A stretch of 64,000 bases of DNA, from positions 64,001 through 128,000 of the forward strand of contig CAWFJP010000002.1 of the NCBI GenBank assembly GCA_963816145.1, given 5' to 3'. The notes beneath the pieces were generated by a model that worked only from the letters and a program-made list of their open reading frames with translations, did no database searches and was not told the origin of the DNA. The position numbers were made by a program, and so were the translations under genes. This stretch comes from an uncultured delta proteobacterium. Its GTDB lineage: Bacteria; Desulfobacterota; Binatia; UBA9968. Positions 28,778-53,184 of the stretch are shown in pieces. The first letter of the stretch is position 1. Each line of letters begins with the position of its first letter.

Positions 28778-28879
28778 GTTACAATCGTTCCAATGGTTCC
28801 AGTTGTTCCAAATGTTTCAGATGCGTGGTTCTGTTACTGCGAGTTCTAAAACAATTGGAACTTCTGGAACCTTTGGAAC
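28778..28879. repeat. Tandem-repeat hairpin, 9-bp unit GTTCCANNN with inverted NNNTGGAAC arm (element A)
   Basis: gttacaatc gttccaatg gttccagtt gttccaaat gtttcagat ... aattggaac ttctggaac ctttggaac. Confidence 0.9.
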
Positions 28880-28897
28880 GCGAACGCGGAGCGTTCG

Positions 28898-29953
28898 CTA
28901 TTCGGAAGCCGCCCACAGTACACGGTCGGCGGGCAACTCGATATCCAATCTCTCCCAGCTGTCCCCCCGGTCGCGGCTGATCATTAGATCGCCGGCGCCG
29001 CCCGATCCTGAGGCGTGGCCGCGGGCGACGTTGCCGAAGCCGGCGAAGACCGCTTTGTGATCGGTCGGATGATGCACCAGCGCCCAGACCATCGAGTCGA
29101 GTTCTTCGGCGAGGCCGTTGGTGACGCGGGCCCAGGACTGTGCGCCGTCGGTGCTTTTGAAGATCGCCGCGCGGGCGCCGCGATTTTCCCGGCGCCAAAA
29201 GCCGGGCGAGGCGTCGGCTGCGCCTATGAGCATGGTTGCTGGTTCGCCAGGGCTCTGCGGATTCAAGAATAGAAAATCGTGGAAATAGTCCCGGGTCATG
29301 CCGTTTTCGGCGCGAGTCCAGCCGTTTTCGGGGGTGTCGCTGGTGAAAAAGCCGCGGGCGCTGGCGACGTAGTAGCGGTCGTGGCGCTTGGGAAAGTTGG
29401 CTATCACATGAATGTCGAGATAGTCGATGCCCTTGCTGACATCTTCCCAGGCGGCGCCGCGGTCAAAGCTGCGGACGATGCCGCCATGCTCCAGGCATAA
29501 GTAAATCGTCTGCGGATTGTCGGGATGGATATGGATGTTGCGCACATGGCCATGGTGCGGCACCTGCGGGTACCACCAGTTTTTGCGCACCGATTGCGGC
29601 AGTTTTTTTAATTCGGCGATTTCTTGCCAGCTGTCGCCGCCATCTTCGCTGCGAAACAGACCCACGGGTTCGATGCCGGTATAGACGACTCTATCGTCGC
29701 CGGGGTCGACGGTGACCGAACGGATGTCGCCTTCGAACACCTTCGCCCAACTCTTGCCGCCGTCCAATGTTCTATACAGCCCGTCATGGGTGACGCCGAC
29801 GAAAACCTTTTCCGGCGACCGTTTGCAGCCGTGGATCGAATCGATGATGCCGTCTGCAAAATGACGTGCGACTTCCTGCCAGCCGGAGTCGGTCGACTTC
29901 CAAGTGATCAATCCATGTTGAGTGCCTGCGTAGAGACGGACACCTTCGCTCAT
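28898..29953 (-). CDS. BNR/Asp-box beta-propeller protein (no signal peptide)
   Basis: Asp boxes RTLDGGKSW, RSEDGGDSW, RSFDRGAAW, KSTDGAQSW, SRDRGDSW. True start is MSEGV after AGGAGG; the longer ORF-track call runs through a repeat. Confidence 0.82.
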   Translation of the reverse strand: MSEGVRLYAGTQHGLITWKSTDSGWQEVARHFADGIIDSIHGCKRSPEKVFVGVTHDGLYRTLDGGKSWAKVFEGDIRSVTVDPGDDRVVYTGIEPVGLFRSEDGGDSWQEIAELKKLPQSVRKNWWYPQVPHHGHVRNIHIHPDNPQTIYLCLEHGGIVRSFDRGAAWEDVSKGIDYLDIHVIANFPKRHDRYYVASARGFFTSDTPENGWTRAENGMTRDYFHDFLFLNPQSPGEPATMLIGAADASPGFWRRENRGARAAIFKSTDGAQSWARVTNGLAEELDSMVWALVHHPTDHKAVFAGFGNVARGHASGSGGAGDLMISRDRGDSWERLDIELPADRVLWAASE

Positions 29954-29965
29954 AAAACCTCCTTG

Positions 29966-30054
29966 GTTCCAGTCGTTCCAGAAGTTCCAATTGTTCCAAA
30001 GGTTCGGACTCCGGCCACACCTGGAACCACTGGAACATTTGGAACCATTGGAAC
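29966..30054. repeat. Tandem-repeat hairpin, 9-bp unit GTTCCANNN (element B)
   Basis: gttccagtc gttccagaa gttccaatt gttccaaag gttcgga ... cctggaac cactggaac atttggaac cattggaac. Confidence 0.9.
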
Positions 30055-30063
30055 GTTCCATTC

Positions 30064-30792
30064 TTACGGGAACAATTCGATTTTCCCCGTCCCGCCTTGT
30101 TTGTCCCATTGCGATTCGATGCGCGAGAAAAACTCCCAGGCCCGGTTGGCGCGGCGCTCGAAGTCGATCTCGGCATTGAAGATTTTGCATTCATCGGCGC
30201 TGAAATGCTCCACCGGGCCGAGTGGCGCGGCTTGCATGGTTTTCTTGGCGTCGTCTTCCAGGATCAGCGACGCGAACAGGACTTCCGCCAAGCTCTTGCC
30301 GGCGACGACGATGCCGTGGCCGCGCATGAGCAAGGCGCGGTGGCCGCCGATGGTTTTGAGCATGGCGTCGCCGCGTTGCGGCGTGGTGACCAGATGAGCT
30401 TCTTTGTAAAGTGGCACGCCTTCGCCGAAGATCGTGCCCTGCAGCGTTACCGGATGAAACTCGCGCTTGGCGATGGCGAACAGTGTCGCGTAGGGGGTGT
30501 GCAGGTGGGCGACGGCCAGCGCATCCGAGCGCGCCGCGTGCAGCGCTGTGTGAATCGGCCACTCTACCGGCGGCGGTATCGCGCCGGTGATGGGCTTGCC
30601 GCTCAGATCGATGGGAATCATGTCCGGCGCGGTGAAGTGAGCCTTGTCCGAACCCGAACCGGGGGTGACGAAAACCGTTTTGCTTTCGGGCTGAAATACG
30701 CTGACATGGCCGAACAGGCCGATCAGCCCCTGCATGGCGAAGATCCTTGTGCAGGTGGCCAGCTGTTCGCGCAATTCTTGTTCCGTTGCCAT
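30064..30792 (-). CDS. Class II aldolase/adducin family protein
   Basis: GHVS, VEWPIH, AHLHTPY, LMRGHG Zn-binding motifs. Confidence 0.9.
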   Translation of the reverse strand: MATEQELREQLATCTRIFAMQGLIGLFGHVSVFQPESKTVFVTPGSGSDKAHFTAPDMIPIDLSGKPITGAIPPPVEWPIHTALHAARSDALAVAHLHTPYATLFAIAKREFHPVTLQGTIFGEGVPLYKEAHLVTTPQRGDAMLKTIGGHRALLMRGHGIVVAGKSLAEVLFASLILEDDAKKTMQAAPLGPVEHFSADECKIFNAEIDFERRANRAWEFFSRIESQWDKQGGTGKIELFP

Positions 30793-31243
30793 TTACTTGG
30801 TTCTCCTTTGTGCGGCTTCCGATTCCTCTTTGACTTCCTTAGACCAGCTGCAGTTGCAGCAGCCGCTCGGGTGGAATGTCCTCTTTGAAGCCAAGCGGGA
30901 TTTTAATGTCGTATTCGAGAAAGTTCTTGATTCCCTCAGCGGACGGTATGACCGGCGCGCCTTTGAGGGCAGCGCGCATACCGCTGCCGCCGCCGCTGAA
31001 ATCAACGTCGCCGCTGAGCAGTGCCGCCGTGGCCAGCGGCCCGGAGATGACCACGGTTTCGTTCTCCAAGCCTTCGTCTTTGAAATAGCCGCGACCGTCG
31101 GCGACGTAGATGGATAAGTAGTTTAAGTTCGCCTGAGGAATGGCGGTGCGGATTTTTTCGGCGTGGGCGTGTGTTTCAATCCCGACCGCTATAACGGAGA
31201 GGAATGCAGCGACGATTACTCTAGCAATTCGCGATGTCGGAAT
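30793..31243 (-). pseudogene. Internally deleted, frameshifted NMT1/SsuA-type substrate-binding protein
   Basis: Signal peptide and GYFKDEGLE...GDVDFS...MRAALKGAP join directly to a C-terminal helix (IKNFLEYDIKIP). An extra T creates TAA at 30839. ATT stands at the expected start after GGAGGAG. Confidence 0.7.
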
Positions 31244-31250
31244 ACGATCT

Positions 31251-31372
31251 CCTCCCCCTTGATGGGAGAGGATGAAGAGCCTGCCCCGGACTCGATCCGG
31301 GGTGGGGGTGCCCGTCAATTTCAACGGAGTGCGTAGCACCCCCATCCTGGCCTTCCCCCGTCGAGGAGGAAG
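31251..31372. repeat. REP-like composite palindrome with a nested CCCCGGA-CTCGA-TCCGGGG hairpin
   Basis: cctcccccttgatgggagagg ... ggtgggggtg ... cacccccatcc .. ccttcccccgtcgaggaggaagg; nested hairpin at 31284-31302. Confidence 0.75.
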
Positions 31373-31422
31373 GTAGGGGTTCGGAAGGAGGAGTGATTGA
31401 GATAGTTGATGCAGTGTTACCG

Positions 31423-32229
31423 TCACGAGAAATACCGATAGACTAGTCGCTTCGGGTGCGTGATCGCCAGCCACAGCGCGCGCATTTTGCCGGCGACGCC
31501 ACAACGTGGCGTAAACAAATCCTTGAGCATCAAGCCCAAAGGAATGCGATGCTTGGGAAATCTGCCGGCGGCGATGTCGCGCACACCGTATTTGTCTTTG
31601 CCTTCTTTCAAGATGTAGACGACGCTGCCGCCACCGGCTTCTTTATCGCCATAGATGTAACCGCCCACCGATTCGGCCTGTTTTTTGGCTTTGTCGGCAA
31701 TCTCTTCGGTGAGGCCGAAGTCGAGCGCATTGACCGGGCAGGCCTGAACACAGAAGGGCTGTTTGTCTTCGCTGATGCGGTCGCTGCACATGGTGCATTT
31801 GCTGGCTTTGCCGGTAATCTCATTCTTGGTGATGACTTCCCAGGGGCAAGCATGGATACAGTACTCACAGCCGATGCAAACATCTTTGTTGATGACCACT
31901 GCGCCTTCTTCATATTTGGTGATCGCCTCGACGGGGCAAACCGCCGCGCAGGCGGCGAAGTCGCAATGCATGCAGCTATTGCGCGCCCAGATCGGCGACA
32001 AACCTTCGAGCACCGGCGGTTCCATGGTGATCCAGTTGGTGCTGGAAAGTTCGTAAAGACTGGTGCGATCGTGATCGTTCCAATCTTTGCAGGCCTGAAC
32101 GCAGTGGCGACAGCCGATGCATTTGGTTGCGTCAAATAGTATGCTGCGCGGCTTGCCGTCGAGCAGCCGGCCGGTTGGAACCAGGTTGCCATATTCTCGG
32201 GTTAGAGTATCCGTCGGTTTTATCGCCAT
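31423..32229 (-). CDS. 4x[4Fe-4S] electron-transfer protein (FdnH/HybA/DmsB-like)
   Basis: CIGCRHCVQAC, CMHC...CAAVCP, CIGCEYCIHACP, CTMC...CVQACP. Confidence 0.92.
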   Translation of the reverse strand: MAIKPTDTLTREYGNLVPTGRLLDGKPRSILFDATKCIGCRHCVQACKDWNDHDRTSLYELSSTNWITMEPPVLEGLSPIWARNSCMHCDFAACAAVCPVEAITKYEEGAVVINKDVCIGCEYCIHACPWEVITKNEITGKASKCTMCSDRISEDKQPFCVQACPVNALDFGLTEEIADKAKKQAESVGGYIYGDKEAGGGSVVYILKEGKDKYGVRDIAAGRFPKHRIPLGLMLKDLFTPRCGVAGKMRALWLAITHPKRLVYRYFS

Positions 32230-32305
32230 GCCGGTCCTTTCGATCTCACGTTCAGCGTGGGTGTATCATTTAAGATTTGCGGGCGTCAACAGAGCGGCAA
32301 CGGGC

Positions 32306-32337
32306 AATGTAGAATTGATAATGGAGAATGGATAATG
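32306..32337. repeat. 7-bp tandem repeat, single arm (AATGGAK-like)
   Basis: aatgtag aattgat aatggag aatggat aatg. Confidence 0.65.
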
Positions 32338-32425
32338 TTCGTGCGCAGATAGCTCTTGTGTTTCGCTAGCCGTCCCGATTAGCATGCGATCAGCTCAGTG
32401 CGTCGGTTCGGAAAGGAGAATTTTC

Positions 32426-33166
32426 ATGGCTTCTGGAACTTGGCGAGGGATTGTCGGCGTGGTGAAACCGACTTACGGGTCGGGATCGCTAGTGGAGTTC
32501 ATTCGGCTCTTGCCGGAAGGGGTCGGCTGCATACCGATGTATGCCGGCATCAAGGAACATTCCGAGCGCGGCTATCTCGGCGCGATGGAGACCTACCATG
32601 TCAAGGTCGCTGAGCTCGCGGAAATCGGCGTCGATCTGATGCATCCCGAGGGCGGACCGCCGTTCATGGTGCGCGGCCATAAGGCCGAGCAGGAGATCGT
32701 CAGCGCTTGGGAAGCCAAGTATAAAGTGCCGATCTTTACCTCGGGCATGTCGCAGGCCCAAGCGCTGCGCGCTTTAGGCATCAGGAAGTTTGTCGGCTGC
32801 ACTTATTTCCGCGATCAGAAGATGAACGATGTCTTCACACGGTACTTCACCGACTGCGGGTTTGAAGTGCTCGGCATGGAGGGCATGGACACCTCGCCCA
32901 GCGAAGCGGACGGAGTTTCTAACGAGACGATCTATCGGCATCTCAAAGCGTCCTTTAACAAACATCCGACGGCGCAGGGTATTTACCTGCTCGGCTCCGG
33001 TGCCTGGGGGATCAAGGACATCGTCACTGCGGAGAACGATCTCGGCGTGCCGGTGGTTCATCCAGTTGCCGCGCGGGTTTGGTACGTGCAGAAGCTCCTA
33101 AGGATTAAGAATCCGTTGAAAGGGGCGAGCCGGTTGTTGGAGGAGTTGCCAGCAATTGTCGGCTAA
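32426..33166 (+). CDS. Maleate isomerase/arylmalonate decarboxylase (Asp/Glu racemase) family protein
   Basis: GVVKPT, ALRALGIRK, GFEVL, ENDLGVPVV fold signatures; AAGGAG RBS. Confidence 0.78.
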   Translation: MASGTWRGIVGVVKPTYGSGSLVEFIRLLPEGVGCIPMYAGIKEHSERGYLGAMETYHVKVAELAEIGVDLMHPEGGPPFMVRGHKAEQEIVSAWEAKYKVPIFTSGMSQAQALRALGIRKFVGCTYFRDQKMNDVFTRYFTDCGFEVLGMEGMDTSPSEADGVSNETIYRHLKASFNKHPTAQGIYLLGSGAWGIKDIVTAENDLGVPVVHPVAARVWYVQKLLRIKNPLKGASRLLEELPAIVG

Positions 33167-33176
33167 CGAATTTGCG

Positions 33177-35063
33177 TCAGTCGAGCTGGCTCCACTCTTG
33201 GAATTCTTGAAGATCTAGTTTCTCCAACGTGTCCTTGAACGGCCTGCCGGTGCGCTCGTGGCGGCCGGAGAGTTTGTAGTAGTCCCAAATCATACCGGGC
33301 AGCCATTTGGCGATGGTGAAGCCTTTGTATTTGCCGTCCGGGATGGGTTCCAAGAATCTTGGGCCGACATCTTGCCAGTCGAAATCGGCAACCCATCCGC
33401 GCTGGGTGCCGAAAAGGCTTTGCAGGATCATGCTGCGGTGGCCGGCGGCGAGGGCTTCGGCGATGGAAAAATCCCAGCCGGTGATCGCGTTGAAGGCGTC
33501 GACGATTGAATTCAAGCCGTCCTTCTTGTGGGCTTCCTGGGCGAACCAGCAGCCGCCGAAGATGCCGGTGAACTGGCGGTATTGCTCGGACAAGACATGC
33601 GACCAAACCCAGCCCTCGGGGTTGTCCATTTCCAGTGGGCCCCAATGTTCGTTGTCACGCAGATCGGGCGGCGGATTTTTCGAGCCACCGCCTTGCGGTT
33701 TCATGCCTCCGCTGGCGACCAACTCTCGTAACATTTGACCGAGCAGCGGGCGCCATTCGTGCATCGCCGGCGTGCCGCCTTTGGTGTGGACTGCCCAGTT
33801 GGGCGCGTCGCCGCCGAGGGCTTCGGCCAATTGCTTCGGCCCCTCGGCGAGCAGATTGCCGAGCCAGCCTTGGCGGCGTGCCGCCAAATCAAGAAGTTTA
33901 TCGACCGCCTCGACACTGCCCCATTCGAGCTTGATGCCATCCGTGCGGTCGGGACCGAGCAAGCCTTTCTCCCACGCTTCGAACGCGACGCCGGCGCCGC
34001 AGGAGAAGTGGCTGCACTCGATTCCCAGATTATTGATCTTCTCTGCGAGATAGAGCACTGCGTTGCCTTTGATGCCGAGGTTGAAAAAAGTATCGAGCCA
34101 CTCGCCGCCGGCATTGAAGTGAACGACCGTTCCTTTGAATTGACCCTCGCCCAACTTGGCATCCCACGGGCACATGCGGGCGCACTGAAAGCAGGGACGG
34201 AGCACGACATCGTTGTCGGCGAAGCCGGCGATATGCGCCGGTTGAATGTCAGTGCTGCGCCAGTTCAAATTGTTGAGCGCGCCCCAGGCGTCGCCGTGTC
34301 CGTACTTGGTTTTCTTTTTCTTGACATCGTGTTGCTGCAAGACGTTGCGCCAACGTAAGCCGGCATCGGCCAGTTTCGTTTTGTCGCGATGGCTTGGCCG
34401 CATGGTGCCGGAAACCACAATGGCTTTGAGTTTTTTCGAGCCGAGCACGGCGCCGCCGCTGTGGGCGGCGAAATGATTGTAGTCGTTGGCGAGCATGGCG
34501 GCGCGATTCAAATTCTCGCCGGCGGGACCGATGCAAAGGACTCTGGCGTCGCGGTTGCCGACGATCTCGCGCAGACGGTCCTCAGTGTGACGGGTGCCGA
34601 GGCCCCAGACTTTCGCGCCATCGCGCAATTCCGCCCTGCCGTCTTTGATATAGAGATAGACCGGCTTCGCCGACACGCCTTGAACGATGACGCCGTCGTA
34701 ACCGGCGGCCTTGAGATAAGTCGCCCAGTAGCCGCTGGTGGCGCCGCGGCCTAATGTCTTGTTGGTCAGTGGGCTGAGATAGACTGCGGTCATTTTTGTG
34801 CCGCCCGGCGTGAAGCCGTTGCCGGTCAGCGGGCCGGTCATCATGACCACTTTGTTTTCCGGGCCGAAGGGTGTCGCGTCGAGGGGCAATTCATGCATCA
34901 AGATATAGAGTGCTAGCGCTTGGCCGCCGATAAATTTCTTTAAGATCGGCTCTTCGGGCAGATTCTCGTCTGTGAGCGTGCCGGTCGTCAGATCGACACG
35001 GAGGATCTTGCCCATATAGCCGCCGGGGAGGGGGGTGGTACGTTTGGCGGGAAATAAACTCAT
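33177..35063 (-). CDS. Aldehyde:ferredoxin oxidoreductase family protein (W-bis-pterin), copy 2
   Basis: Paralog of 26845-28752: SPLT, IGPAGENL, GSKKLKA, CFQCARMC, GGCWF. Confidence 0.9.
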   Translation of the reverse strand: MSLFPAKRTTPLPGGYMGKILRVDLTTGTLTDENLPEEPILKKFIGGQALALYILMHELPLDATPFGPENKVVMMTGPLTGNGFTPGGTKMTAVYLSPLTNKTLGRGATSGYWATYLKAAGYDGVIVQGVSAKPVYLYIKDGRAELRDGAKVWGLGTRHTEDRLREIVGNRDARVLCIGPAGENLNRAAMLANDYNHFAAHSGGAVLGSKKLKAIVVSGTMRPSHRDKTKLADAGLRWRNVLQQHDVKKKKTKYGHGDAWGALNNLNWRSTDIQPAHIAGFADNDVVLRPCFQCARMCPWDAKLGEGQFKGTVVHFNAGGEWLDTFFNLGIKGNAVLYLAEKINNLGIECSHFSCGAGVAFEAWEKGLLGPDRTDGIKLEWGSVEAVDKLLDLAARRQGWLGNLLAEGPKQLAEALGGDAPNWAVHTKGGTPAMHEWRPLLGQMLRELVASGGMKPQGGGSKNPPPDLRDNEHWGPLEMDNPEGWVWSHVLSEQYRQFTGIFGGCWFAQEAHKKDGLNSIVDAFNAITGWDFSIAEALAAGHRSMILQSLFGTQRGWVADFDWQDVGPRFLEPIPDGKYKGFTIAKWLPGMIWDYYKLSGRHERTGRPFKDTLEKLDLQEFQEWSQLD

Positions 35064-35089
35064 CGTTGGCTCCGTGAATTGCGTGTCAA

Positions 35090-35173
35090 AAGGACGAAGG
35101 ATGAAGGCGGAAGGATGAATTCGGATTGTCAGTGATTCTTAACTTCATCCCTCATCCCTCCGCCTTCATCCTT
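35090..35173. repeat. Tandem-repeat hairpin, 7-bp unit AAGGATG with inverted arm (element D)
   Basis: aaggacg aaggatg aaggcgg aaggatg aa ttcgga ... ttcatccc tcatccc tccgcct tcatcctt. Confidence 0.88.
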
Positions 35174-35178
35174 GCCTA

Positions 35179-36171
35179 TCATCTTACTCCGAAAATCGCG
35201 CGCATTTCTTCGCCCGCCGGGCCGTATTCTTTTGCCATGCGCGGGTCGCTCGCTTGCAATTTCACGTTTTTCAGTGAAAACACTTGAGGGTCGACGTCGC
35301 GATGAGCGGGAATTCTCCCCTGGTCGCGCAGCATGCGTTGGCCTTCGATGGAGAGAATAAAGCCGATCAGCAGTTTGCCGGCGTTGGGGTGCGGCGCGCT
35401 TTTGGCAAGAACCATCGGGTGCACGTAGGTGATCACCGGCTCGTCGAAAACATATTGCACCGGACCGCCTTGGGCTTTAATGCGCGCCGCGATGTGGGCG
35501 TAGGTGTTGGTGACGGCGTGGAATTCACCGGCGGCGAGGAGTTGCGCCGTGATGTTATGACCATCGCGCAGGGCCGGTTGTTGGGCGGCCAGCGCTTTCA
35601 AAAAAGTACGCGTTTTGTCTTTGCCCCAGCGCCGCTGCAAGTTGACGTACCACTCCGGGTCTTGGAGATTGACGCCGATGCGTCCCTTCCAGCGCGGCGC
35701 CAAAAGATCTTCGTATTTCTTCGGCGCTTCATCGGGTCTGACGAGCTGGGTGTTGTAGGCCATGGAGTTGAGCAGCGAATGGACGTTGACCCAGTGGCCA
35801 TCGGGATCTTTGAAGCCTTCGTCGAAAGCTGCGGCTTCAGGCGGCACATAGCGCTGGGTGAGCCCAGACTCCTTCATCAGCTGCACCTGAAATCCCGCAG
35901 AAGTCACGACGTCGACGGCGAAGCGGCCGGCCTTCGCTTCGGTGCTGGCGCGTTGCAGCACCCGTTCGCTGGTGCCACGGTAGAACGACGGCTTGATCGC
36001 TGGATATTTTTTCTTGAAGGCGTCGACCAGGGTGACGATCTGCTCGTTGTTGAGGGAGCTATAAAGTACCACTTCGCCTTCGGCGCGGGCGCCCTCTTCG
36101 AGGGTGGCGGCATGCGCGGGAGGGAATAGGACTGATACGACAAATAGGACCAATAGTGATCGAAGCATCAT
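35179..36171 (-). CDS. Extracellular solute-binding protein (Fe3+/thiamine-like, SBP_bac_6)
   Basis: Signal peptide, AEGEVVLYSS, AYNT, DLLAPRWKG, APHPNAGKL. Confidence 0.85.
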   Translation of the reverse strand: MMLRSLLVLFVVSVLFPPAHAATLEEGARAEGEVVLYSSLNNEQIVTLVDAFKKKYPAIKPSFYRGTSERVLQRASTEAKAGRFAVDVVTSAGFQVQLMKESGLTQRYVPPEAAAFDEGFKDPDGHWVNVHSLLNSMAYNTQLVRPDEAPKKYEDLLAPRWKGRIGVNLQDPEWYVNLQRRWGKDKTRTFLKALAAQQPALRDGHNITAQLLAAGEFHAVTNTYAHIAARIKAQGGPVQYVFDEPVITYVHPMVLAKSAPHPNAGKLLIGFILSIEGQRMLRDQGRIPAHRDVDPQVFSLKNVKLQASDPRMAKEYGPAGEEMRAIFGVR

Positions 36172-36183
36172 CACGTTTGGGCC

Positions 36184-37164
36184 TCACACATGGCCGATGA
36201 AAAGATCATCCATGGGCAGCATGATTTTCATCAAGCCCTGTTCGATTTGGTAGCGGTTCATAGCCGCGAGGGTGCGCTTTTCGTTGTCGCCCATGACGTA
36301 GGCGTAAGGATCTTCGCCCAGCGCGTCGCGTTCTTTTTGATAGCCGGCGATCTCCTCAGGCGGCATGTACTCGGTCGAGACATCGCGCGCTGCCATGAAG
36401 GCACGGGTGAGCTTCGCCGGGAAGTCGGGGTGGCGATCGACCACCTCTTTGCGGATCGACAATACATGCATGATCGGATTGATGCCGGTTCTCTTGACGT
36501 AATCGAGAATCTCCTGATTGTCGTCGAACAGCGGTTTTACCCCAGGGTAAGCGGCCATCATCGGCGGGGTTTCGCCGCCGCCGAAGAAGCCGGCATAGCC
36601 GTTGTCGCCCGGCACAACCGCGCCGTGCAGTTCACCTTCACTGAGCATTTTCGACAGCACCAGCTTCTCGCCGCCGAAGGGTGGCGGCGGCTCGATGCGC
36701 TGGACCTTCACCGGCAATTCATGGCCGATGAACACCTCGCGGCCGGACACGAACCACTGCATGTCAGTGGTCTTGATGCCATGGGCGTCGAGTAAATAGC
36801 CGCGCGCCCAGACCACGGCGGTGGCGCCGTAACGGAAGCAGCCGAACTTTTTGCCTTTGAGTTCCGACGGATGTTTCAGATGTTTGTCGCAGTGGTAAAT
36901 GTTGCGCTGGCGCGGACCGCGCTCGAAGAACACCGGTATGGCGAGCAATTGCTGCCCCTTCTCGATGGCGCGCATCAAGCTCGCCGCCGAGACTTCGCCG
37001 ACATCCCATTCGCCATGAAGATATTTGTAGTGGCGCTCGCCGGAGGAGACGAAGTTCGGATCGACGTCGAGTTCGTAGCCGTCGATGCCGACTTTGCCGT
37101 CGATGATCGCCTGGCAGCGGGGGTGGTCGGGAAGACCTAGGGTAATTTTAGTTTTGGTGGCCAT
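36184..37164 (-). CDS. 4,5-dihydroxyphthalate decarboxylase-like protein (PBP fold, no signal peptide)
   Basis: DVGEVS, AIPVF, ATAVVWARG, PIMH, GEDPYAY motifs; paralog of 11393-12397. Confidence 0.78.
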   Translation of the reverse strand: MATKTKITLGLPDHPRCQAIIDGKVGIDGYELDVDPNFVSSGERHYKYLHGEWDVGEVSAASLMRAIEKGQQLLAIPVFFERGPRQRNIYHCDKHLKHPSELKGKKFGCFRYGATAVVWARGYLLDAHGIKTTDMQWFVSGREVFIGHELPVKVQRIEPPPPFGGEKLVLSKMLSEGELHGAVVPGDNGYAGFFGGGETPPMMAAYPGVKPLFDDNQEILDYVKRTGINPIMHVLSIRKEVVDRHPDFPAKLTRAFMAARDVSTEYMPPEEIAGYQKERDALGEDPYAYVMGDNEKRTLAAMNRYQIEQGLMKIMLPMDDLFIGHV

Positions 37165-37187
37165 GAGTTTGCTCCTTCAAGATTTTG

Positions 37188-37269
37188 GTTCCATTCGTTC
37201 CAATGGTTCCAAATGTTCCAATCGTTTTCGAACATCTGGAACGACTGGAACGGCTGGAACGATTGAAAC
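37188..37269. repeat. Tandem-repeat hairpin, 9-bp unit GTTCCANNN (element C)
   Basis: gttccattc gttccaatg gttccaaat gttccaatc gttttcgaac atctggaac gactggaac ggctggaac gattgaaac. Confidence 0.9.
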
Positions 37270-37278
37270 TCCCCGGCG

Positions 37279-38340
37279 CTACCGCGCGCCGGGGAAGATC
37301 TCTCGATACCGGTTGCCGATCTGTTGATAGCGTCTTCCTATATCGAAAATATCCGGCATGCGCACGTCTTGGCCTTCCAGGAGTTGGCTCTCGGGGGATT
37401 TAACTTTGGGATGAGCCGGCATGCGATTGGTGGTGACGATGATTTTCTGGCCGTCTTCCGAAAGCAGGTAGTCGGTGAACAGCGCGCCGGCGAAGGGGTG
37501 GGGCGCATTGGCGCTCATGAAGACCAGGCTCGGACTGAGAAAGTAGGGTTGGATCGGCGCGAAGCCCAGCGGCGCGCCCTGTCGACTCAAACTGAGCACC
37601 GAGTTGAGATTGGTCTCCACGGCGATCTCATGCTCGCCGGCGGCGAGCAGTTGAGTCATCAAGCGGCGGCCGCGCGAGTGCTGCAAGTTTTGCTCGTTCA
37701 AGCGCTTCATGAAGCGCTGGCCGTTCTCTTCGCCCAGGTACTGCATTATGGTGCCGAACCAAACGTAGGATTGACTGTCCATCACCAGTTTGTTTTTCCA
37801 GCGCGGCTTCAAGAGATCTTCGACGCTGCGCGGCAGTTCGTCTTTTTGGACTAGCCGGCTGTTGTAGGCGCTGACCATGACGTTGGTCATGTAGGTGGTC
37901 CACAGGCCGTCTTTGTCTTTGAAGCCGTCGCGCAAGGTTTCCCGTTCCGGCGAGCGGTAGCGCGCGGCGACGCGCTTTTCGATGGACGCGAGCACGCCCA
38001 ATTGGCCGCTCAAGACGACATCCGACAAGGGTTTGCCGACGCGACTTTCGGATTCGATTCGCGTGATGATCGCGGCACCGGAGAAATGCACGCTGGTGGC
38101 TTTGACCCCGGGGTATCTTCTCATGAAGCCGTCAGCGAGCGGCTTCATCGCGGTTACGTCCATATTGGCATACACGACCGCTTCGCCGTCATTTTTCGCG
38201 GCTTCCAACAAACGCTGCCGACGTTCCGCCGCCGGCAGTTTTTCCAATGCAGCGAGTTTAGTCTCGCTACTCTGGGCCCAGAGCACCGATTGGGGCGCGA
38301 AAAATGACAGCGCCAGAAGAAAGATCAACGCCAAATGCAT
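37279..38340 (-). CDS. Extracellular solute-binding protein (SBP_bac_6-like)
   Basis: Signal peptide, DGEAVVY, AYNS, DLLKPRWK, APHP...LLSEDGQ. Confidence 0.85.
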   Translation of the reverse strand: MHLALIFLLALSFFAPQSVLWAQSSETKLAALEKLPAAERRQRLLEAAKNDGEAVVYANMDVTAMKPLADGFMRRYPGVKATSVHFSGAAIITRIESESRVGKPLSDVVLSGQLGVLASIEKRVAARYRSPERETLRDGFKDKDGLWTTYMTNVMVSAYNSRLVQKDELPRSVEDLLKPRWKNKLVMDSQSYVWFGTIMQYLGEENGQRFMKRLNEQNLQHSRGRRLMTQLLAAGEHEIAVETNLNSVLSLSRQGAPLGFAPIQPYFLSPSLVFMSANAPHPFAGALFTDYLLSEDGQKIIVTTNRMPAHPKVKSPESQLLEGQDVRMPDIFDIGRRYQQIGNRYREIFPGAR

Positions 38341-38350
38341 GCCGGCCTCA

Positions 38351-39343
38351 TTATTTCCTTATACCCAATTCGCGCTGAACTTCGTGCAATAACGAGAAGT
38401 CGACTAGCTTGGCAATCGGCGGTTGTGCCGCAAGTTTCAGCGGTTGGGTGATGGTCAGGTCGATATTGTTGCGCAACGATTCGTCGCTGGCGCCGCCCGG
38501 GTTTCTCGGGTCAATGGCTTTGATGCAGATATTCGCCGCGCCCTCGGTGATATCGCGCGGATGTTTGAATTCGGCCTGGGCGATCTTGTAGGTCTCCTCG
38601 GGCCGCGTTTGCATGAGTTGCAGGCTCTTCACCATGGCGCGGGTCCAGCGTTTGAGTTTGTCGCGCCGGTTGGTCAACAGCGCATCCGAGGTCGAATAGC
38701 CCGCCCAGGGCCAGGCGCCGAGGTCGGCTAAGACTGCGAGTTCGGTAAAGCCCTGCTTCTTCAAGATGAGCGCCGCGTCGGGATTGAAGGCGCGGGCGTG
38801 GATCACGCCATTGCGCATGGCGGTGATGGAGGTTTCAGCGCCGCCGATGGTCATGAAGGTCACGTCTTTTTTGGGATCCATGCCGTTCGCCTGTAGCACC
38901 ATGCTAGCGGCGATTTCAGTGGTCGCCCCGGGACCGGTGGTGCCGATCACCTTGCCGCGCAGATCTTGAACGCGCTTAATTTCCGGCGCGCCGAGAAGCA
39001 CGAACAGGCTCTTATAGTAGGGAAAAAAATTGGCTTTAAGCGGCGCGCCGCGCGCGGCGGCGCGCATCGACGAGCCGGCGATGCCGGCGACATCGATCTC
39101 GCCGGCCATCAGCGCGGTGACGACGACGTTGCTGTTGACGACGATCCACTGAATCTCCAAGTTCTCCTGGGCGAAAAAACCGGAGCGCATGCCGACGAAC
39201 AGCGGCAGATAGCCGAAGTCTTTTGTTGATAGAGCGACTCGGAAGAGTTCGCCGTGGCTGTTGCTCACTGAGCCGAGGAGGATGGCTGCGAGGGACGCAG
39301 TCATTGCTAGTCTATTGAGGCAACGGTGCATGAGTGTTTTCAT
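38351..39343 (-). CDS. ABC-type substrate-binding protein (NMT1/SsuA-like)
   Basis: GFFAQENLE, DLRGKVIG, VDFSLL motifs; start approximate. Confidence 0.82.
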   Translation of the reverse strand: MKTLMHRCLNRLAMTASLAAILLGSVSNSHGELFRVALSTKDFGYLPLFVGMRSGFFAQENLEIQWIVVNSNVVVTALMAGEIDVAGIAGSSMRAAARGAPLKANFFPYYKSLFVLLGAPEIKRVQDLRGKVIGTTGPGATTEIAASMVLQANGMDPKKDVTFMTIGGAETSITAMRNGVIHARAFNPDAALILKKQGFTELAVLADLGAWPWAGYSTSDALLTNRRDKLKRWTRAMVKSLQLMQTRPEETYKIAQAEFKHPRDITEGAANICIKAIDPRNPGGASDESLRNNIDLTITQPLKLAAQPPIAKLVDFSLLHEVQRELGIRK

Positions 39344-39374
39344 GGCGCTAGATAGAAGTGATTTATCGGAGATT

Positions 39375-39450
39375 CTCCCGCCAAGACGCCAAGCGCGCAA
39401 AGGTAAGAATTATTTGCCTGAACTTAGCGTCCTTAGCGGCTTTGCGGGAG
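39375..39450. repeat. Tandem-repeat hairpin, 8/9-bp unit CGCCAAG(N) with inverted arm (element E)
   Basis: ctcc cgccaaga cgccaagcg cgcaaag ... cctgaa cttagcgtc cttagcgg ctttgcg ggag. Confidence 0.85.
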
Positions 39451-39456
39451 TGACTC

Positions 39457-40407
39457 TTAATCAATATAACCCTTCTCGCGAAAATATTTCTTCGCCCCCG
39501 GATGAAGCGGGATGTTGAGTTGTCCCGCTTCGCCGCCGCGGCAAAATTCGCGGATGGTCATCGGCCGTTTGTCGAAATGATCGACCGGGATATGTTTGTG
39601 GCAAAGGTCGACCGCTCTGGCCATGTGGTAGGCGACCTTGTCAGATAAATCGGCATGGCAGAAAAATGTCCAGCCGCTGAAATCGACGCAGCGAATGGCT
39701 TGATCCAATTTCGGGTAATGCTTGCGCGTCAGCATGGCGCTGGGAAAACCCAACTTGGACATATGTTTGGCCGCGTTGTCGTCGATGGGCAAAAAGCGCA
39801 TCCCGGCTTTGAGCGCTGTCGGCCCCCAGCTTTTCACGCCTTCGTCAAATACCGCGTCGGCCTTGCCGGATAAAATCGCGTCGCGCCGTTCCGGGCCGCT
39901 CGGATTGGGAGCTTCCATGATCTTGCCGCCCCATTTCTCAATATCCCGGTAACTCATGCCATACGCCTTGAGCACTTCTTCGATAGCGTAGATCGTCGTT
40001 GCCAGTTTGCCGCGGCGGCGCGTCGAGATGCGTAGAGGATACTTCTGCTTTTTGACGTCTTCCAGCGATTTGATGCCGGTGTCTTTGCGCACGGCGAAGA
40101 TCAAGCGGTCCCAGGTCGGGAACACGCCGATGGCGCGCAGCGGGATTTTCTTCTTATAAAAGCCGCAGCCGAGATAGGCCATCGCCGACAAACCCACCGG
40201 ATTGCCGAAACCGAAGGTGTATTTCTTGTTGCCGACGAGGATCGCTGGCCCGGTGCCGCCCAACTCGGAGTCGCGCCAGCCCATGGCGATGTCGAGCTGC
40301 GACTGGCGCGGCAACTCAATGCTATTGAAAAACGTATAGCCGACGACGTTGGCGATATCGACGCGTTTCGAAGTTGCGGCAATGGAGAGTTTAATGGGTT
40401 TGTCCAT
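39457..40407 (-). CDS. TAXI-family TRAP solute-binding-fold protein (no signal peptide)
   Basis: GIKSLED, GKADAVFD, C-terminal IPLHPGAKKYFREKG. Confidence 0.82.
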   Translation of the reverse strand: MDKPIKLSIAATSKRVDIANVVGYTFFNSIELPRQSQLDIAMGWRDSELGGTGPAILVGNKKYTFGFGNPVGLSAMAYLGCGFYKKKIPLRAIGVFPTWDRLIFAVRKDTGIKSLEDVKKQKYPLRISTRRRGKLATTIYAIEEVLKAYGMSYRDIEKWGGKIMEAPNPSGPERRDAILSGKADAVFDEGVKSWGPTALKAGMRFLPIDDNAAKHMSKLGFPSAMLTRKHYPKLDQAIRCVDFSGWTFFCHADLSDKVAYHMARAVDLCHKHIPVDHFDKRPMTIREFCRGGEAGQLNIPLHPGAKKYFREKGYID

Positions 40408-40451
40408 GATGTCGTCCTCGTGAAATGTTTTGGTTTAATGGGTCGGAATCC

Positions 40452-40533
40452 TCACCACGAAGAGCACGAAGGACACGAAGGTTTCGGATAATTGTTTTTC
40501 CGAACTTCGTGATCTTCGTGTCCTTCGTGGTGA
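40452..40533. repeat. Tandem-repeat hairpin, 9-bp unit CACGAAGNN with inverted arm (element F)
   Basis: tcac cacgaagag cacgaagga cacgaag gtttcgga ... tccgaa cttcgtgat cttcgtgtc cttcgtggtga. Confidence 0.9.
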
Positions 40534-45555: not shown

Positions 45556-45595
45556 CCGTTGCAATAACTCTGAGCGCGGTAAAGATAGAGCGGCG

Positions 45596-45931: not shown

Positions 45932-46356
45932 GGTTGAGCTCCTTTCAAATTTATTCTCATAACCAGGCGGTTTTTGTCGTTCTGCCTGCGATATTCCAAT
46001 TCATCGATCAACTTGCGCACAAGGTGAATTCCCAAGCCGCCGATCGGTCGCGCCACGAGTGATTGTTTCGTGTTCGCCTCGGGGGACTCTAAAGGATTGA
46101 AGGGCCTGCCGCCATCCTCCACTTCGGCGGTCCATTTTCCCTGTTCCAGGGAGAAGCGAGCGGTAATGTGATGCTCCCCGGGATCGTCGTAGCCATAAGA
46201 GATAACGTTGGTCAGAATCTCGTCCAAAGCGAGTTTCATGTTGTATACGATTTTCACCTCGATTTGATGGCGTCGGCCGAAATCGTCGACTATACGCGCG
46301 AGTCGTGCTATCTCGGAGAGCTGGTTTTTGAGATCCACAGCGACGACTTCACTCAT
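45928..46356 (-). CDS. Anti-sigma Ser/Thr kinase (RsbW-like HATPase)
   Basis: LALDEILTNVISYG, EDGGRPFNP, GGLGIHLVR. Confidence 0.92.
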   Translation of the reverse strand: MSEVVAVDLKNQLSEIARLARIVDDFGRRHQIEVKIVYNMKLALDEILTNVISYGYDDPGEHHITARFSLEQGKWTAEVEDGGRPFNPLESPEANTKQSLVARPIGGLGIHLVRKLIDELEYRRQNDKNRLVMRINLKGAQP

Positions 46357-49120: not shown

Positions 49121-49130
49121 GCGCGGCCAA

Positions 49131-50903: not shown

Positions 50904-50909
50904 GCGAGG

Positions 50910-51224
50910 TTACGAGTTCACGTCAATGAATGATGTGAAACCTGCTAGATTTAAGAGACTATGGATTTGTTGCGGGACGTTTAGGAGTCGCAACCGTTCG
51001 CCTCGTTTTTGCAGCGCCTTGGCGGCCAGCAGCAAGACGCGTAGACCGGCGCTGCTCAGGTACGAGACCTGCGCCAAGTCGAGCTGCACCGCGCCGCTTG
51101 GGCTTTCAGCGGCATGCAGCAGTGGTTCCTGCAGCGCGGCGGCGGTCGTGCTATCCACCGGCCCCACGGCATGGAGAACGATAGTCGACGCCAATTGCTC
51201 AAACCTGACTTCCAGCTCTTTCAT
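50910..51224 (-). CDS. STAS anti-anti-sigma factor
   Basis: GPVDS, DLAQVSYLSSAGLRVLL. Confidence 0.9.
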   Translation of the reverse strand: MKELEVRFEQLASTIVLHAVGPVDSTTAAALQEPLLHAAESPSGAVQLDLAQVSYLSSAGLRVLLLAAKALQKRGERLRLLNVPQQIHSLLNLAGFTSFIDVNS

Positions 51225-51883
51225 TCTTTTGCCCCTAATGATCGTTGGTACTGGACGTTATCGAAATCGGCAGCAGATATCCAGGTTTTTTCGTAAGCCA
51301 AGGCCAAGGCGGCAGAGCGATTTCTTGGCATTGCGTAACCGGTCGAACGGCAAGAGGCCCGGGGTTCCGTGAGCTGTGCAGGAGCAAGCGGGTCAGGTGA
51401 CCGTCGCAAGGTCGAAGTTCATGACAGTCCAAGAACTCCTGACAACCACACTGACAGTAAGCGCTATGAATGTGAACGCAGCAAGGCGCCTTGGAATCGA
51501 CGGCGGCATACAAGCCCCGATCTCTTTGAACAAATGCCAGATCAAGGCGCTGCGGGCGTTGCGGGCGGAGCGCCTTTGAAGCTGTTGCCCAGCCTTCGGT
51601 TGTCTGCCGAGCGAACTCGGCTACCGCATGCGCCGCATTGTTGAAGGCGAAGTTGCCGGCCTCGATCGACAGGGTCATGCAGTCCGTGTTTTTCGAAACG
51701 ATTTCCATTGCGGTAATATCAATGAGCGCCAAGATACAAGCTCTGCTCTTGTTCCAATCACCCGCGTCACATCTACCCCAGGCGAACATTGATTGAAAGA
51801 CATAATTCCCCCGCACCGTCCTCGTAACGCTTTACCTTGCGTTCACAAACGTGTTTTTATATAAGCCCCCATGGGGAGGCTAT

Positions 51884-53122
51884 CTGAAAGATTTTTTTAA
51901 AGTTGAGACGCCGCAGGAGGCGCGCAGAATTCTGCTCGAACTTTCTCCCGTGGGCACGGAAAGTGTGGCCACGGTTCGCGCCAGAAGCCGAGTGTTGGCC
52001 GAAGATCTCTTCTCCCAGGTCGATTTGCCACATTTCCACCGCGCCGCCATGGACGGTTACGCCGTCAAAGCCAAGGACACCTTCGGTGCCAGTCAAAGTT
52101 TACCGGCTTATTTGAAACTCGCGGGCGTTGTAGAGATGGGCAAAGCGGCGACCCAGACGATCAACCAGGGCGAGGCGATCCGCATCTCTACCGGCGGAAT
52201 GATGCCGCCGGAGGCCGACGCGGTGGTGATGGTCGAATACACTGATGAAACCGATCGGGGATTGGTCGAGATTCACCGAAGCGTGGCGCCGTGGCAAAAC
52301 GTCATTCAGATTGGCGATGATATAAAAAAGGGTGAGCCGGTGTTCTTCCAAGGCCGGCGGCTGCGCGGCCATGACTTGGGCGCGCTTACGGGCGTCGGCA
52401 TTTCATCGATTACGGTCCATAGACGCCCGCGCGTCGCGCTTATCTCTACCGGCGACGAGATCGTCGATGCCGATGTCGAGCCGCAGCCCGGACAGGTGCG
52501 CAACATCAACCAGCATTCGCTAGCCGGCATGATCGAAGAGGCGGGCGCGGAACTCAAAGATTGGGGCGTGATCGGCGATGATCGGGCGCAACTCACCGAG
52601 GCAATCGGTGCCGCCTTGGCATGGGCCGACGCGGTGCTTCTTTCCGGCGGCAGCTCCATGGGCGCCAAGGATATCGCCTTGGAAACGATCTTGTCTTTTC
52701 CCGATTCTCAATTCATCTTTCACGGCATTTCAATCGCGCCGGGTAAGCCGACGATATTCGCCAAGGCTTGCGGCAAGCCGATTCTTGGTCTACCCGGTTA
52801 TCCGGTATCCGCCTCTGGTGATCTTTCGATCTTGTTTGGCGCGCCCATGCTGCGCCGTTTGGGCGGCGAAGGTCTCGACGCGCTACAACGCTTTAGCCGA
52901 ACGGTGCGGGCGAAGTTGACGACCAATATCTCGTCGCAACTCGGTCGCGAAGACTATGTCCGAGTCGTCATGAAAGCCGACGGTGCAGGCTTCAAAGCGA
53001 CGCCGTTGCCAAGTAAGTCGGGTGCGATTTTCACTCTGGTCAAAGCCGACGGCATGGTTCGCATCGGCATGAATCAGGATGGTCTCGAACAGGGCGAAGA
53101 GGTAGACGTCATTTTATTTTAG
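51884..53122 (+). CDS. moeA: Molybdopterin (Mo/W) molybdotransferase MoeA
   Basis: AAMDGYAV, ISTGG, ISTGDE, SGGSS, APGKP, LPGYP. Start uncertain: CTG 51884 after GGGGAGG, or GTG 51851. Confidence 0.92.
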   Translation: MKDFFKVETPQEARRILLELSPVGTESVATVRARSRVLAEDLFSQVDLPHFHRAAMDGYAVKAKDTFGASQSLPAYLKLAGVVEMGKAATQTINQGEAIRISTGGMMPPEADAVVMVEYTDETDRGLVEIHRSVAPWQNVIQIGDDIKKGEPVFFQGRRLRGHDLGALTGVGISSITVHRRPRVALISTGDEIVDADVEPQPGQVRNINQHSLAGMIEEAGAELKDWGVIGDDRAQLTEAIGAALAWADAVLLSGGSSMGAKDIALETILSFPDSQFIFHGISIAPGKPTIFAKACGKPILGLPGYPVSASGDLSILFGAPMLRRLGGEGLDALQRFSRTVRAKLTTNISSQLGREDYVRVVMKADGAGFKATPLPSKSGAIFTLVKADGMVRIGMNQDGLEQGEEVDVILF

Positions 53123-53135
53123 TTACCGGTATTGT

Positions 53136-53184
53136 GTTTCGAGTTTCGGGCTTTGAACCGAAACCCGCAACCCGCAACTCAAAC
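53136..53184. repeat. Tandem-repeat hairpin, 7-bp unit GTTTCGR / CCGMAAC (element G)
   Basis: gtttcga gtttcgg gctttga a ccgaaac ccgcaac ccgcaac tcaaac, between the two moeA genes. Confidence 0.72.

Follow-up and report, generated by a model that had tools for sequence, protein, structure and literature searches.

Intergenic hairpins of inverted word arrays in an uncultured delta proteobacterium as probable gene-less relatives of small PF05635 and GxxExxY gene cassettes

A 64,000-nucleotide stretch of the genome of an uncultured delta proteobacterium (Desulfobacterota; Binatia; UBA9968; assembly GCA_963816145.1, contig CAWFJP010000002.1, positions 64,001 to 128,000), hereafter called the window, carries a series of intergenic hairpins of one design, in which a tandem array of a short word is followed, after a spacer, by the same array inverted. 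Our analysis suggests that these hairpins are probably the gene-less form of small repeat-armed gene cassettes. Elsewhere in the same genome, small genes of two families, PF05635 and PF13366 (GxxExxY), lie between arms of this design, and the word in the arms goes with the clade of the enclosed (cargo) protein.

Small genes of two families lie between inverted word arrays

The whole 7.82-Mb assembly was searched (31 contigs; the window is C2:64001-128000). A family search returned ten PF05635 matches, eight of them full-length, and all eight full-length genes lie between inverted arrays of 7 to 9 nt, with the words TAGGCAA, GTAAGGG, TTGAGAG, GTTCAAA (twice), GAGATAG, TTAGTGA, and CGGGTTT. All five PF13366 genes were recovered independently from array pairs 100 to 1,000 nt apart; two lie in the loop of a CACGAAG or CGCAAAG hairpin, and three are each bracketed by a pair of full hairpins (CACAGAG, CGCCAAG, and AACGGAG words). 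The PF05635 cargo scores 130 bits with TIGR02436 and the PF13366 cargo 154 bits with TIGR04256, while the NCBIfam Avd model gives the PF05635 cargo 34.9 bits, against a cut-off of 80. The closest solved structure to the PF05635 cargo is 2gsc from Xanthomonas campestris, an entry with five chains. Two PF05635 cassettes 18 kb apart on contig C15 encode proteins that are 90% identical, and their homology starts at the arrays, indicating that the arrays are part of the copied unit. All 13 cargo genes share the direction of the upstream host gene and begin 54 to 193 nt past its stop codon; 10 of the 13 also share the direction of the downstream gene. The 13 cassettes and all elements of the window are located between protein-coding genes and not in a 23S rRNA helix.

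The association was also observed in relatives. Among 61 genomes of the order, PF05635 is present in 28 (22 of 28 in family f1, 5 of 5 in f2, and 0 of 27 in f3) and PF13366 in 13. For each locus, 24-mers of the upstream flank were compared with the reverse complement of the downstream flank, and a match at 19 or more positions was scored as passing. By this inverted-match test, 19 of 28 PF05635 loci and 19 of 23 GxxExxY loci of the relatives passed, compared with 4 of 300 random small genes of this genome, and several loci below the threshold still show arrays by eye. These results bear out the statement in the first-pass annotation of the window that similar arrays flank four-helix-bundle or GxxExxY genes in other genomes. 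Copies whose loop carries an open reading frame (ORF), for which it had proposed a search, do exist and encode PF05635 or PF13366 proteins, which lends support to its suggestion that the hairpins are units resembling MITEs (miniature transposable elements with inverted repeats) or empty sites of a cargo-carrying element.

Two variations of the design were seen. At L057 and L058, both in family f2, the PF05635 genes are flanked by arrays in direct orientation (AGACCAGAC-type words), and some Nitrospirota loci have long arrays in both orientations on both sides.

The word follows the clade of the cargo protein

Among PF05635 genes of the order, clade and word correspond. Clade tests were run on loci that had not been used to form this idea. 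The scans used two single clades, a profile of all 33 PF05635 proteins being too diverse for a locus scan, and the resulting sets of 80 loci (about 150 loci in two clades) are the best matches to the queries rather than random samples.

For clade 1 ("GFERGGNQEF"), taking one genome per species, the best 80 loci came from at least 12 named phyla, and 56 of the 76 loci with full flanks passed the inverted-match test. The consensus units reported by Tandem Repeats Finder (TRF) differ from GTTCAA by 0, 1, 2, or 3 mismatches at 23, 21, 21, and 6 of 71 loci, respectively; the corresponding figures are 0.1, 3.6, 25, and 57% for random units, and other clades give 0, 1, 5, 12, and 4 of 22 for 0 to 4 mismatches. 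Variants of the clade-1 word (GTTTAA, GTCCAA, GTTTCG, and others) follow the protein tree, with 26 changes, whereas 200 label shuffles needed 34.8 on average and never fewer than 32. A metagenome scan with clade 2, the TAGGCAA clade, gave similar evidence: among its best 80 loci, 32 of 61 passed the inverted-match test, and the units match AGGCA without mismatch at 17 of 64 loci and with one mismatch at 13 of 64, compared with 0.7 and 11% of random units and with 0 and 1 of 71 clade-1 units. Clade-2 matches with at least 59% protein identity have nearly all AGGC[AG]NN units, and more distant ones mostly AGGGNN.

For GxxExxY genes, 18 of the 19 passing loci in relatives have arms made of CRCRRAG variants with a period of 8 to 9 nt (the exception, L185, has CGCAGAT), and three loci just below the threshold also have CRCRRAG-type arrays. 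Three phased CRCRRAG words occur in 10 to 186 copies in each of the 13 genomes with PF13366, while a reversed control pattern had zero occurrences in the genomes compared. In one genus, the copy numbers are 18, 57, and 150 in three genomes with PF13366 and 0, 0, 0, 14, and 23 in five without it; this co-occurrence is an association among kin that are not independent and not a causal test. The sense orientation of the cargo genes was observed in the clade sets as well: at callable loci, the upstream neighbor is on the cargo strand in 48 cases versus 2 for clade 1 and 35 versus 2 for clade 2, and the downstream neighbor in 36 versus 7 and 37 versus 4.

Together, these results demonstrate that the word used is associated with the clade of the cargo protein. 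Judged by their words, the CACGAAG and CGCCAAG hairpins of the window would be of GxxExxY type, and the three GTTCCA elements and the GTTTCG element would be of clade-1 PF05635 type; GTTTCG also occurs next to clade-1 PF05635 genes of other phyla. AAGGATG arrays adjoin a PF05635 fragment at another site in the genome, and the AATGGAG word has no cargo-bearing copy in this genome. The first-pass annotation had described the arrays as unrelated sequences with one architecture. The shared architecture holds, but the words are not entirely unrelated, since they fall into groups that follow the cargo family.

Paired arrays are abundant and lie mostly between co-oriented genes

To be counted genome-wide, an array needed a period of 5 to 10 nt and at least 2.5 copies, and partners were sought within 150 nt. 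Of 1,788 arrays, 563 have an inverted partner and 74 a direct one; in two dinucleotide-shuffled genomes there were 212 and 235 arrays, of which 9 and 4 had an inverted partner. When the partner search was extended to 3 kb, the inverted partner lay less than 60 nt away in 362 of 628 cases and the direct partner in 13 of 333, with inverted partners concentrated at distances of 10 to 60 nt. The merged set comprises 390 elements, about 20 of which are GC-rich hexamer noise within genes; degenerate arms escape detection at the TRF thresholds. The genome uses more than 15 different words. Counted as loci with at least five exact words, the families are CACGAAG (124 loci), GTTCCA (34), GTTCAA (34), CGC[AC]AAG (32), AAT[GT]GA (16), ATTTTNG (10), GGAGTR (7), CACAGAG (6), AAGGATG (5), and AGGCA (4). 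Allowing one mismatch brings the CACGAAG family to 196 copies. Three words are present in each arm of 134 of these, the loop measures 24 nt throughout the interquartile range, and the elements end sharply. The arrays are thus multi-copy, far above what shuffled sequence yields.

High-copy extragenic palindrome families, often stacked with other modules, are also typical of repetitive extragenic palindromes (REPs) and bacterial interspersed mosaic elements (BIMEs), which are moved by a Y1-type REP-associated tyrosine transposase (RAYT) as REP doublets (REPINs). This mechanism had been offered in the first-pass annotation, and the stacking at least is present here, a GC-rich hairpin being combined with the arrays on both sides in 21 of its 46 copies. 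However, array hairpins flank none of the seven Y1-transposase (PF01797) matches in the genome, the arms consist of tandem words rather than a single short palindrome with a conserved head, and the genes that are flanked belong to other families. We consider a REPIN origin very improbable.

The GC-rich hairpin (CCTCCCCCGCG, a short loop, and CGCGGGGGAGG, with C-rich and G-rich shoulders) is found, for example, at C1 414105, C4 552979, and C8 35195. Beyond the copies with GTTCCA or GTTCAA arms on both sides, 15 have them on one side and 10 stand alone, and there is no orientation bias relative to genes (9 versus 14, p = 0.40). In relatives it occurs at junctions matching 29953/30064 (L023) and 37164/37279 (L028 and L029) of the window. 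Other, unrelated palindromic families (e.g., GTCATTCCGGCG ... CCGGAATG) are present in the same kinds of spacers, in this genome near C5 239400 and in relatives at junctions 33166/33177 and 35063/35179 (L024, L030, L033, and L034), suggesting that such spacers are colonized by several element classes.

Gene context was taken from a simple gene caller of our own (7,296 genes) and is crude. By these calls, 337 of the 390 elements are mostly intergenic, with 265 in co-oriented, 51 in convergent, and 20 in divergent spacers; the spacers of at least 60 nt that were available number 3,098, 700, and 917, respectively. Elements are therefore 4.2-fold rarer in divergent than in co-oriented spacers (odds ratio, p = 3e-13). 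The median element starts 18 nt past the upstream stop codon and ends 40 nt before the next start codon. This placement bears on the proposal made for the paired repeats of Geobacter metallireducens, that such arrays are binding sites of host global regulators. Words that are conserved while the spacers between them drift, with fixed phasing, would suit such sites, and one G. metallireducens word, TCTCCGTS, resembles AACGGAG here (passages of PMC2700814). On the other hand, the elements sit at the 3′ ends of genes and are depleted where promoters lie, more than 15 words in one genome would be many for such regulators, and the words track the enclosed small gene and not the function of neighboring genes. 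Regulator binding sites are accordingly an improbable explanation.

Word families turn over at orthologous junctions

The junctions of the window were compared in 16 syntenic stretches from same-genus genomes, with coding identities of 75 to 88%. At junction 28752/28898, five relatives have GTTCCA hairpins, four have GTTCAA hairpins, and three have other palindromes; junction 29953/30064 holds GTTCCA, GTTCAA, or other elements. The spacer at 32306 has varied single 7-mer arrays. Junction 35063/35179 is empty (9 nt) in one relative and has other elements in others; junction 37164/37279 has GTTCCA, GTTCAA, ATTCCA/ATTACA, or TCAAATC arrays; the junction at 39304, which holds the 39371 element, is empty (27 to 28 nt) in three relatives; and junction 40407/40557 has CACGAAG, GAGGATG, or CGCAAAG arrays or nothing (48 nt). 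Tight junctions of 5 to 23 nt are filled in no relative. The presence/absence alignment suggested in the first-pass annotation therefore reveals arrays that are not fixed, the word families differing or being absent at orthologous junctions.

Cassettes were compared in the same way. Both flanks map to this genome for 24 of 50 cassette loci of relatives, and 7 of the 24 sites lack the gene here. Two of these have an ATTTTGG hairpin, a different word; two have no arrays; one has decayed CACGAA remnants; and another is occupied by a CACGAAG hairpin, the relative having a GxxExxY gene next to a CACAGAG hairpin at that place. At C3 452364-452720, the left ATTCCA/ATTACA arm stands alone, while the same-genus locus L062 has arm, PF05635 gene, and arm, which suggests a route by which single-arm arrays such as that at 32306 of the window could arise. 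Homing of a gene into a cognate empty hairpin would be an attractive source of new copies, but the seven gene-lacking sites give no clean proof of it. Behind lexA, one orthologous cassette is built of GTTCAA 9-mers in this genome, of GTTCCA 9-mers in a genome of the same genus, and of GGTTCAA 8-mers in a different genus; all units of both arms change together. In 200-kb samples of single genomes, which are a hint only, an f3 genome (no PF05635, 67% GC) had no 7- to 9-nt array hairpin and an f2 genome had about three or four, while this genome had 17 and 24 paired arrays.

The arms also vary by the gain and loss of whole units. In public sequencing runs, contigs of one DNA and one RNA-library run contain an extra 9-nt unit (TGGAACCTT) after 28864 in the right arm of the first hairpin of the window, indicating a whole-unit length variant in the environment. 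Such gains, together with the variation of unit number between relatives and the existence of single arms and decayed remnants, are what a neutral by-product of microsatellite slippage and fold-back copying would yield, with no function and with the protein link reflecting shared location; a variable heptamer number between strains is also described for a Coxiella burnetii element (passages of PMC4990558). A neutral process would nevertheless leave three observations without explanation: words are conserved while the spacers between them are randomized, the same word group accompanies one clade at 50 to 60% protein identity across phyla, and 196 near-identical CACGAAG copies share a fixed 24-nt loop. 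A neutral origin is therefore improbable.

The words, rather than pairing between the arms, are conserved

The arms could be maintained as a hairpin stem or as two arrays of a word. For GTTCMA elements, inter-word spacers match the partner arm at 33.8 to 37.7% of positions, compared with 34.5% for arms from different loci (30 loci). In CACGAAG elements, in-register spacers match at 5%, and one particular spacer pair remains unpaired in 38 of the 40 copies. Across 108 oriented cassettes, 72% of arm positions are Watson-Crick pairs, and the mismatches are G:T in 222 cases and A:C in 221. Among 260 gene-less elements, the sense and antisense strands are the more stable in 130 cases each, with 7.8% versus 7.3% G-U pairs, and gene-less CACGAAG hairpins have no orientation bias (39 versus 36). 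Covariation in the 40 CACGAAG copies amounted to 3 double-change pairs, with 3.4 expected from shuffles, a null result that carries no weight against pairing because the copies are too alike. The arms fold well, but there is no signal that pairing is what is kept. A conserved word and phase with spacers that are not conserved are the signature expected of a sequence-specific reader.

These data bear most directly on the possibility that the elements are RNA structures selected by the host, such as intercistronic processing sites, 3′-end stabilizers, or attenuators, with cargo genes as occasional passengers of the loop. The position between a stop codon and the next start codon, the rarity in divergent spacers, and the very stable folds would all be expected of such structures, as would the filling of the same junctions in most relatives whatever the word and the fact that the tightest junctions are never filled. 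In addition, the stems of rRNA intervening sequences (IVSs) are RNase III substrates according to passages of PMC4990558. The counts above, however, contain no strand signal; the CACGAAG family occurs in either orientation, spacers are not complementary, covariation is absent, and some relatives have bare spacers of 9 to 48 nt. A role as intrinsic terminators was rejected, since 0 of 17 terminator-like sites between 28000 and 41500 coincide with the hairpins (shuffles give 17.9 sites). A purely structural role would also leave unexplained why words are conserved with protein clades across phyla. We therefore regard host-selected structure as unlikely, though it is the strongest of the alternatives.

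Proposed cassette model and the points against it

The explanation that we favor, and hold to be probable, is that the elements are IVS-like cassettes with MITE-like gene-less derivatives, whose arms repeat a word that the cargo protein reads. In a full cassette, three to five phased copies of a 6- to 7-nt word (period, 7 to 9 nt) precede a small gene, and an inverted copy of the array follows it. The encoded protein is of the four-helix-bundle family (PF05635/TIGR02436, "23S rRNA intervening-sequence protein," related to the Avd protein of diversity-generating retroelements) or of the GxxExxY family (PF13366/TIGR04256, PD-(D/E)XK fold). Cassettes are found a few tens of bases past the stop codon of a host gene, whose direction the cargo gene shares, and the cargo gene would be transcribed by read-through from the host operon. 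The arms would be mirror arrays of putative binding sites, like transposon ends, and not a stem kept for pairing. That the protein reads its word is suggested by the 2gsc relative, described as a homopentameric toroid in passages of PMC4990558, together with arrays of three to five units. Gene-less hairpins would be non-autonomous derivatives that owe their maintenance or spread to the cognate protein acting in trans, and transcribed hairpins would fold and probably be cut by RNase III, by analogy with rRNA intervening sequences. A broader version, in which each clade of the pentameric four-helix-bundle (S23p/Avd-like) or GxxExxY nuclease-fold proteins reads its own 6- to 7-nt word, repeated three to five times in mirror arrays flanking its gene, and these pairs define a new class of mobile or self-maintaining elements, with the heptamer and nonamer hairpins of many phyla as its gene-less members and the classical intervening sequences as its members in rRNA, is offered tentatively, as a possibility with the odds against it.

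Several observations weigh against the favored explanation. Binding, cleavage, transposition, and mobility in general are inferred from sequence. Target-site duplications of 2 to 5 nt, sought at four assumed boundaries of the 196 CACGAAG copies, were not consistently present; counts were at or below chance in 13 of 16 settings and marginally above it in three (5 versus 3.1, 1 versus 0.8, and 1 versus 0.2), although the true boundaries may differ from those assumed. To our knowledge, neither cargo family is a known transposase, and the use of one architecture by two unrelated families could point to an unseen third factor that acts on the architecture. Arrays in direct orientation are also seen at 20 of the 76 clade-1 loci. 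At least 10 CRCRRAG arrays (14 to 55) are present in 5 of 48 genomes without PF13366, one of them 81% complete. For three hairpin families (AAT[GT]GA, 16 loci; ATTTTNG, 10; GGAGTR, 7), this genome lacks a cognate gene, and the cargo words TTAGTGA, GGGTTT, and TTGAGAG have no gene-less copies in it. Most mapped cassettes sit at orthologous sites across genera, which indicates that they are old and stable rather than visibly mobile, and the filling of the same junctions by differing families in most relatives fits a host need for any hairpin. Finally, the gene calls are crude, relatives are not independent samples, and orthologous loci inflate some of the counts.

Hairpins of the window and their gene neighborhood

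The first-pass annotation had listed at least seven elements with one architecture and a half element at 32306. TRF, an inverted-repeat scan, and RNA folding recovered them as placed (Table 1): six are strong hairpins, the one at 53136 is weak, and the array at 32306 is indeed a single arm. Arm pairs from the inverted-repeat scan are 22 to 36 nt long, 76 to 95% complementary, and 12 to 33 nt apart; the 39375 element scored too low for the TRF list and was read by eye and by folding. Folding used the gene strand with 200 shuffles per element, and none of the 200 shuffles was as stable as the native sequence for any of the six strong hairpins. The 24-nt loop of the 40452 hairpin holds an inner TTCGGA/TCCGAA stem.

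Table 1. Array elements of the window: coordinates, arms, and RNA folding
Element	Position	Word	TRF array (units of 7 or 9 nt)	Arms	Arm length, complementarity, units	Fold (kcal/mol)	z	Remarks
28778	28778..28880	GTTCCA 9-mer hairpin	28776-28879	28786-28821 / 28845-28880	36 nt, 86%, 4-5 units	-48.2	-9.6	No gene inside
29966	29964..30054	GTTCCA 9-mer hairpin	29965-30054	29964-29994 / 30017-30047	31 nt, 77%	-46.8	-5.9	No gene inside
32306	32306..32337	Single-arm array, AATGGAG/AATTGAT 7-mers	32306-32337				0.04	Divergent spacer; inverted partner not found; no fold as RNA
35090	35090..35173	AAGGATG 7-mer hairpin	35090-35173	35097-35118 / 35152-35173	22 nt, 95%	-49.6	-7.5	No gene inside
37188	37188..37269	GTTCCA 9-mer hairpin	37188-37262	37188-37220 / 37237-37269	33 nt, 76%	-43.9	-7.2	No gene inside
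39375	39371..39452	CGCCAAG/CGCAAAG hairpin, putative GxxExxY-type word			3 units per arm	-37.6	-4.4	No gene inside
40452	40452..40533	CACGAAG 9-mer hairpin, putative GxxExxY-type word	40456-40529	40452-40480 / 40505-40533	29 nt, 86%, 3+3 units	-49.2	-9.0	No gene inside
53136	53136..53178	Weak short element, GTTTCG	53158-53178		Two GTTTCG units opposite three CCG[AC]AAC units	-15.4	-2.3	5 of 200 shuffles equal the fold

Pfam matches and gene calls agree with the earlier statement that every full element sits between co-oriented genes. The 28778 element separates two minus-strand genes, following the stop of a BNR/sortilin-like gene and preceding the start of an aldehyde:ferredoxin oxidoreductase gene, and the 29964 element occupies the spacer from the aldolase stop to the ribosome-binding site of the BNR-like gene. 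Neighbors in the hairpin cluster, all on the minus strand, are two aldehyde:ferredoxin oxidoreductases, a BNR-repeat protein, a class II aldolase, a ferredoxin, and five solute-binding proteins; those of the 53136 element are two MoeA genes on the plus strand. Clustering of six elements within about 12 kb and their absence from the ribosomal block had also been noted, and both were reproduced: six lie within 28778-40533, and neither TRF nor the inverted-repeat scan found such an element in 1-27000, which includes a small housekeeping block at 16.1 to 20.3 kb (ispE-like kinase, prs, L25, Pth, and S6).

The aldehyde:ferredoxin oxidoreductase genes (26845-28752 and 33177-35063) are paralogues in one minus-strand cluster, together with seven solute-binding-protein genes of NMT1/SBP_bac types (25752-26774, 30839-31504, and 35179-40407; the NMT1 match of 30839-31504 is weak, E = 2.6e-05). 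This cluster may serve tungsten- or molybdenum-dependent aldehyde catabolism. A MoeA and MoeA-PBP pair lies at 51851-55126. Between the BNR-like stop and the first GTTCCA element, a perfect 8-bp hairpin at 28881-28897 (GCGAACGC, GGA, GCGTTCGC) is kept in most same-genus relatives. In Rfam 15, only two tRNAs of the window, at 15160-15231 (minus strand) and 17395-17465 (plus strand), reached the gathering score, and no rRNA was found; at E values up to 1, the hairpins matched only sub-threshold microRNA-precursor models, which are generic for long hairpins.

In the public runs, the 40452 hairpin has a depth of 390 to 420, as expected of a multi-copy element, and assembled contigs of RNA libraries cover parts of the hairpin region. 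Contig ends abut at 39411/39412, and contigs break at other hairpins of the window as well, as repeats cause assemblers to do. A practical consequence is that short-read assemblies of soil genomes are broken by these elements.

Comparison with known systems

The closest likeness is to IVSs of rRNA. Passages of PMC4990558 describe a 23S rRNA IVS of C. burnetii, termed selfish, with an S23p ORF behind tandem heptamers and a terminal stem of 28 bp that RNase III cuts. As in that element, and in those of Leptospira and others cited in the same passages, a PF05635-family ORF lies here in the loop of a terminal-inverted-repeat stem. The elements in this genome differ in that they occupy operon spacers of mRNA, number in the hundreds, fall into more than 15 word families, and have a second cargo family, GxxExxY, that uses the same design. 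IVS stem-loops that lack an ORF exist and would parallel the gene-less hairpins.

In G. metallireducens, passages of PMC2700814 describe three to five tandem repeats of 7 to 8 nt paired on opposite strands, as putative binding sites of global regulators. Classes 1 to 3 of these repeats share with the elements here a variable pair distance, tens of copies, several word classes, and one close word. The difference is in the reading, as regulator sites, and those passages do not link the repeats to enclosed small genes.

Rehm et al. (2015) interpreted heptamers of Xanthomonas (GGGAATC) and Nostoc (GGGGA(C/T)T) as G-quadruplex formers, with 70 to 75 convergent inverted pairs per Xanthomonas genome and about four units, variable in number, per array (passages of PMC4692102). 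Those heptamers, like the elements here, are intergenic, mostly between aligned ORFs and rarely between divergent ones, and the elements of this genome have the properties of paired heptamers, with three to five or more tandem 7- to 9-nt units on opposite strands in aligned-ORF spacers. A quadruplex, however, requires G-tracts, which are absent from most words here, and that reading was rejected for this genome. Neither "S23" nor "XCC0516" is mentioned in PMC4692102. TAACTGA direct repeats of Beggiatoaceae are the subject of one further paper.

Among mobile elements, REP/BIME sequences and their RAYTs resemble the present elements as abundant extragenic palindrome families with mosaic stacking of modules, but here the arms are word arrays and no HUH transposase is among the enclosed genes. 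MITEs and their parent transposons share the existence of autonomous and non-autonomous forms and of repeated words inverted at both ends; the longer relatives here encode PF05635 or PF13366 proteins instead of a known transposase. Transposon ends with several subterminal binding sites are known from Tn7, Mu, and Ac/Ds, and such ends need not pair. Avd of diversity-generating retroelements resembles PF05635 and belongs to the same fold family (passages of PMC10053308), whereas the cargo here scores as TIGR02436 and not as Avd. By position, the neighbors of the 13 cassettes are ordinary host genes; no search aimed at reverse transcriptases was made.

No paper linking intergenic repeat arrays to PF05635 or GxxExxY genes outside rRNA was found in a search that covered few subscription journals and no supplements. 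The clade-specific words and the sense orientation of the cargo genes were measured in this analysis. TIGR02436 ("four helix bundle protein") and TIGR04256 ("GxxExxY protein") are two very large families with no known function, and intergenic heptamer repeats have been a puzzle for decades, from the cyanobacterial short tandemly repeated repetitive (STRR) sequences to the repeats of Xanthomonas and Geobacter and the rRNA intervening sequences. A word that travels with a protein clade turns these puzzles into one testable hypothesis, that the protein binds its own array; if this is true, the families would provide a natural set of small proteins with differing short-word specificities.

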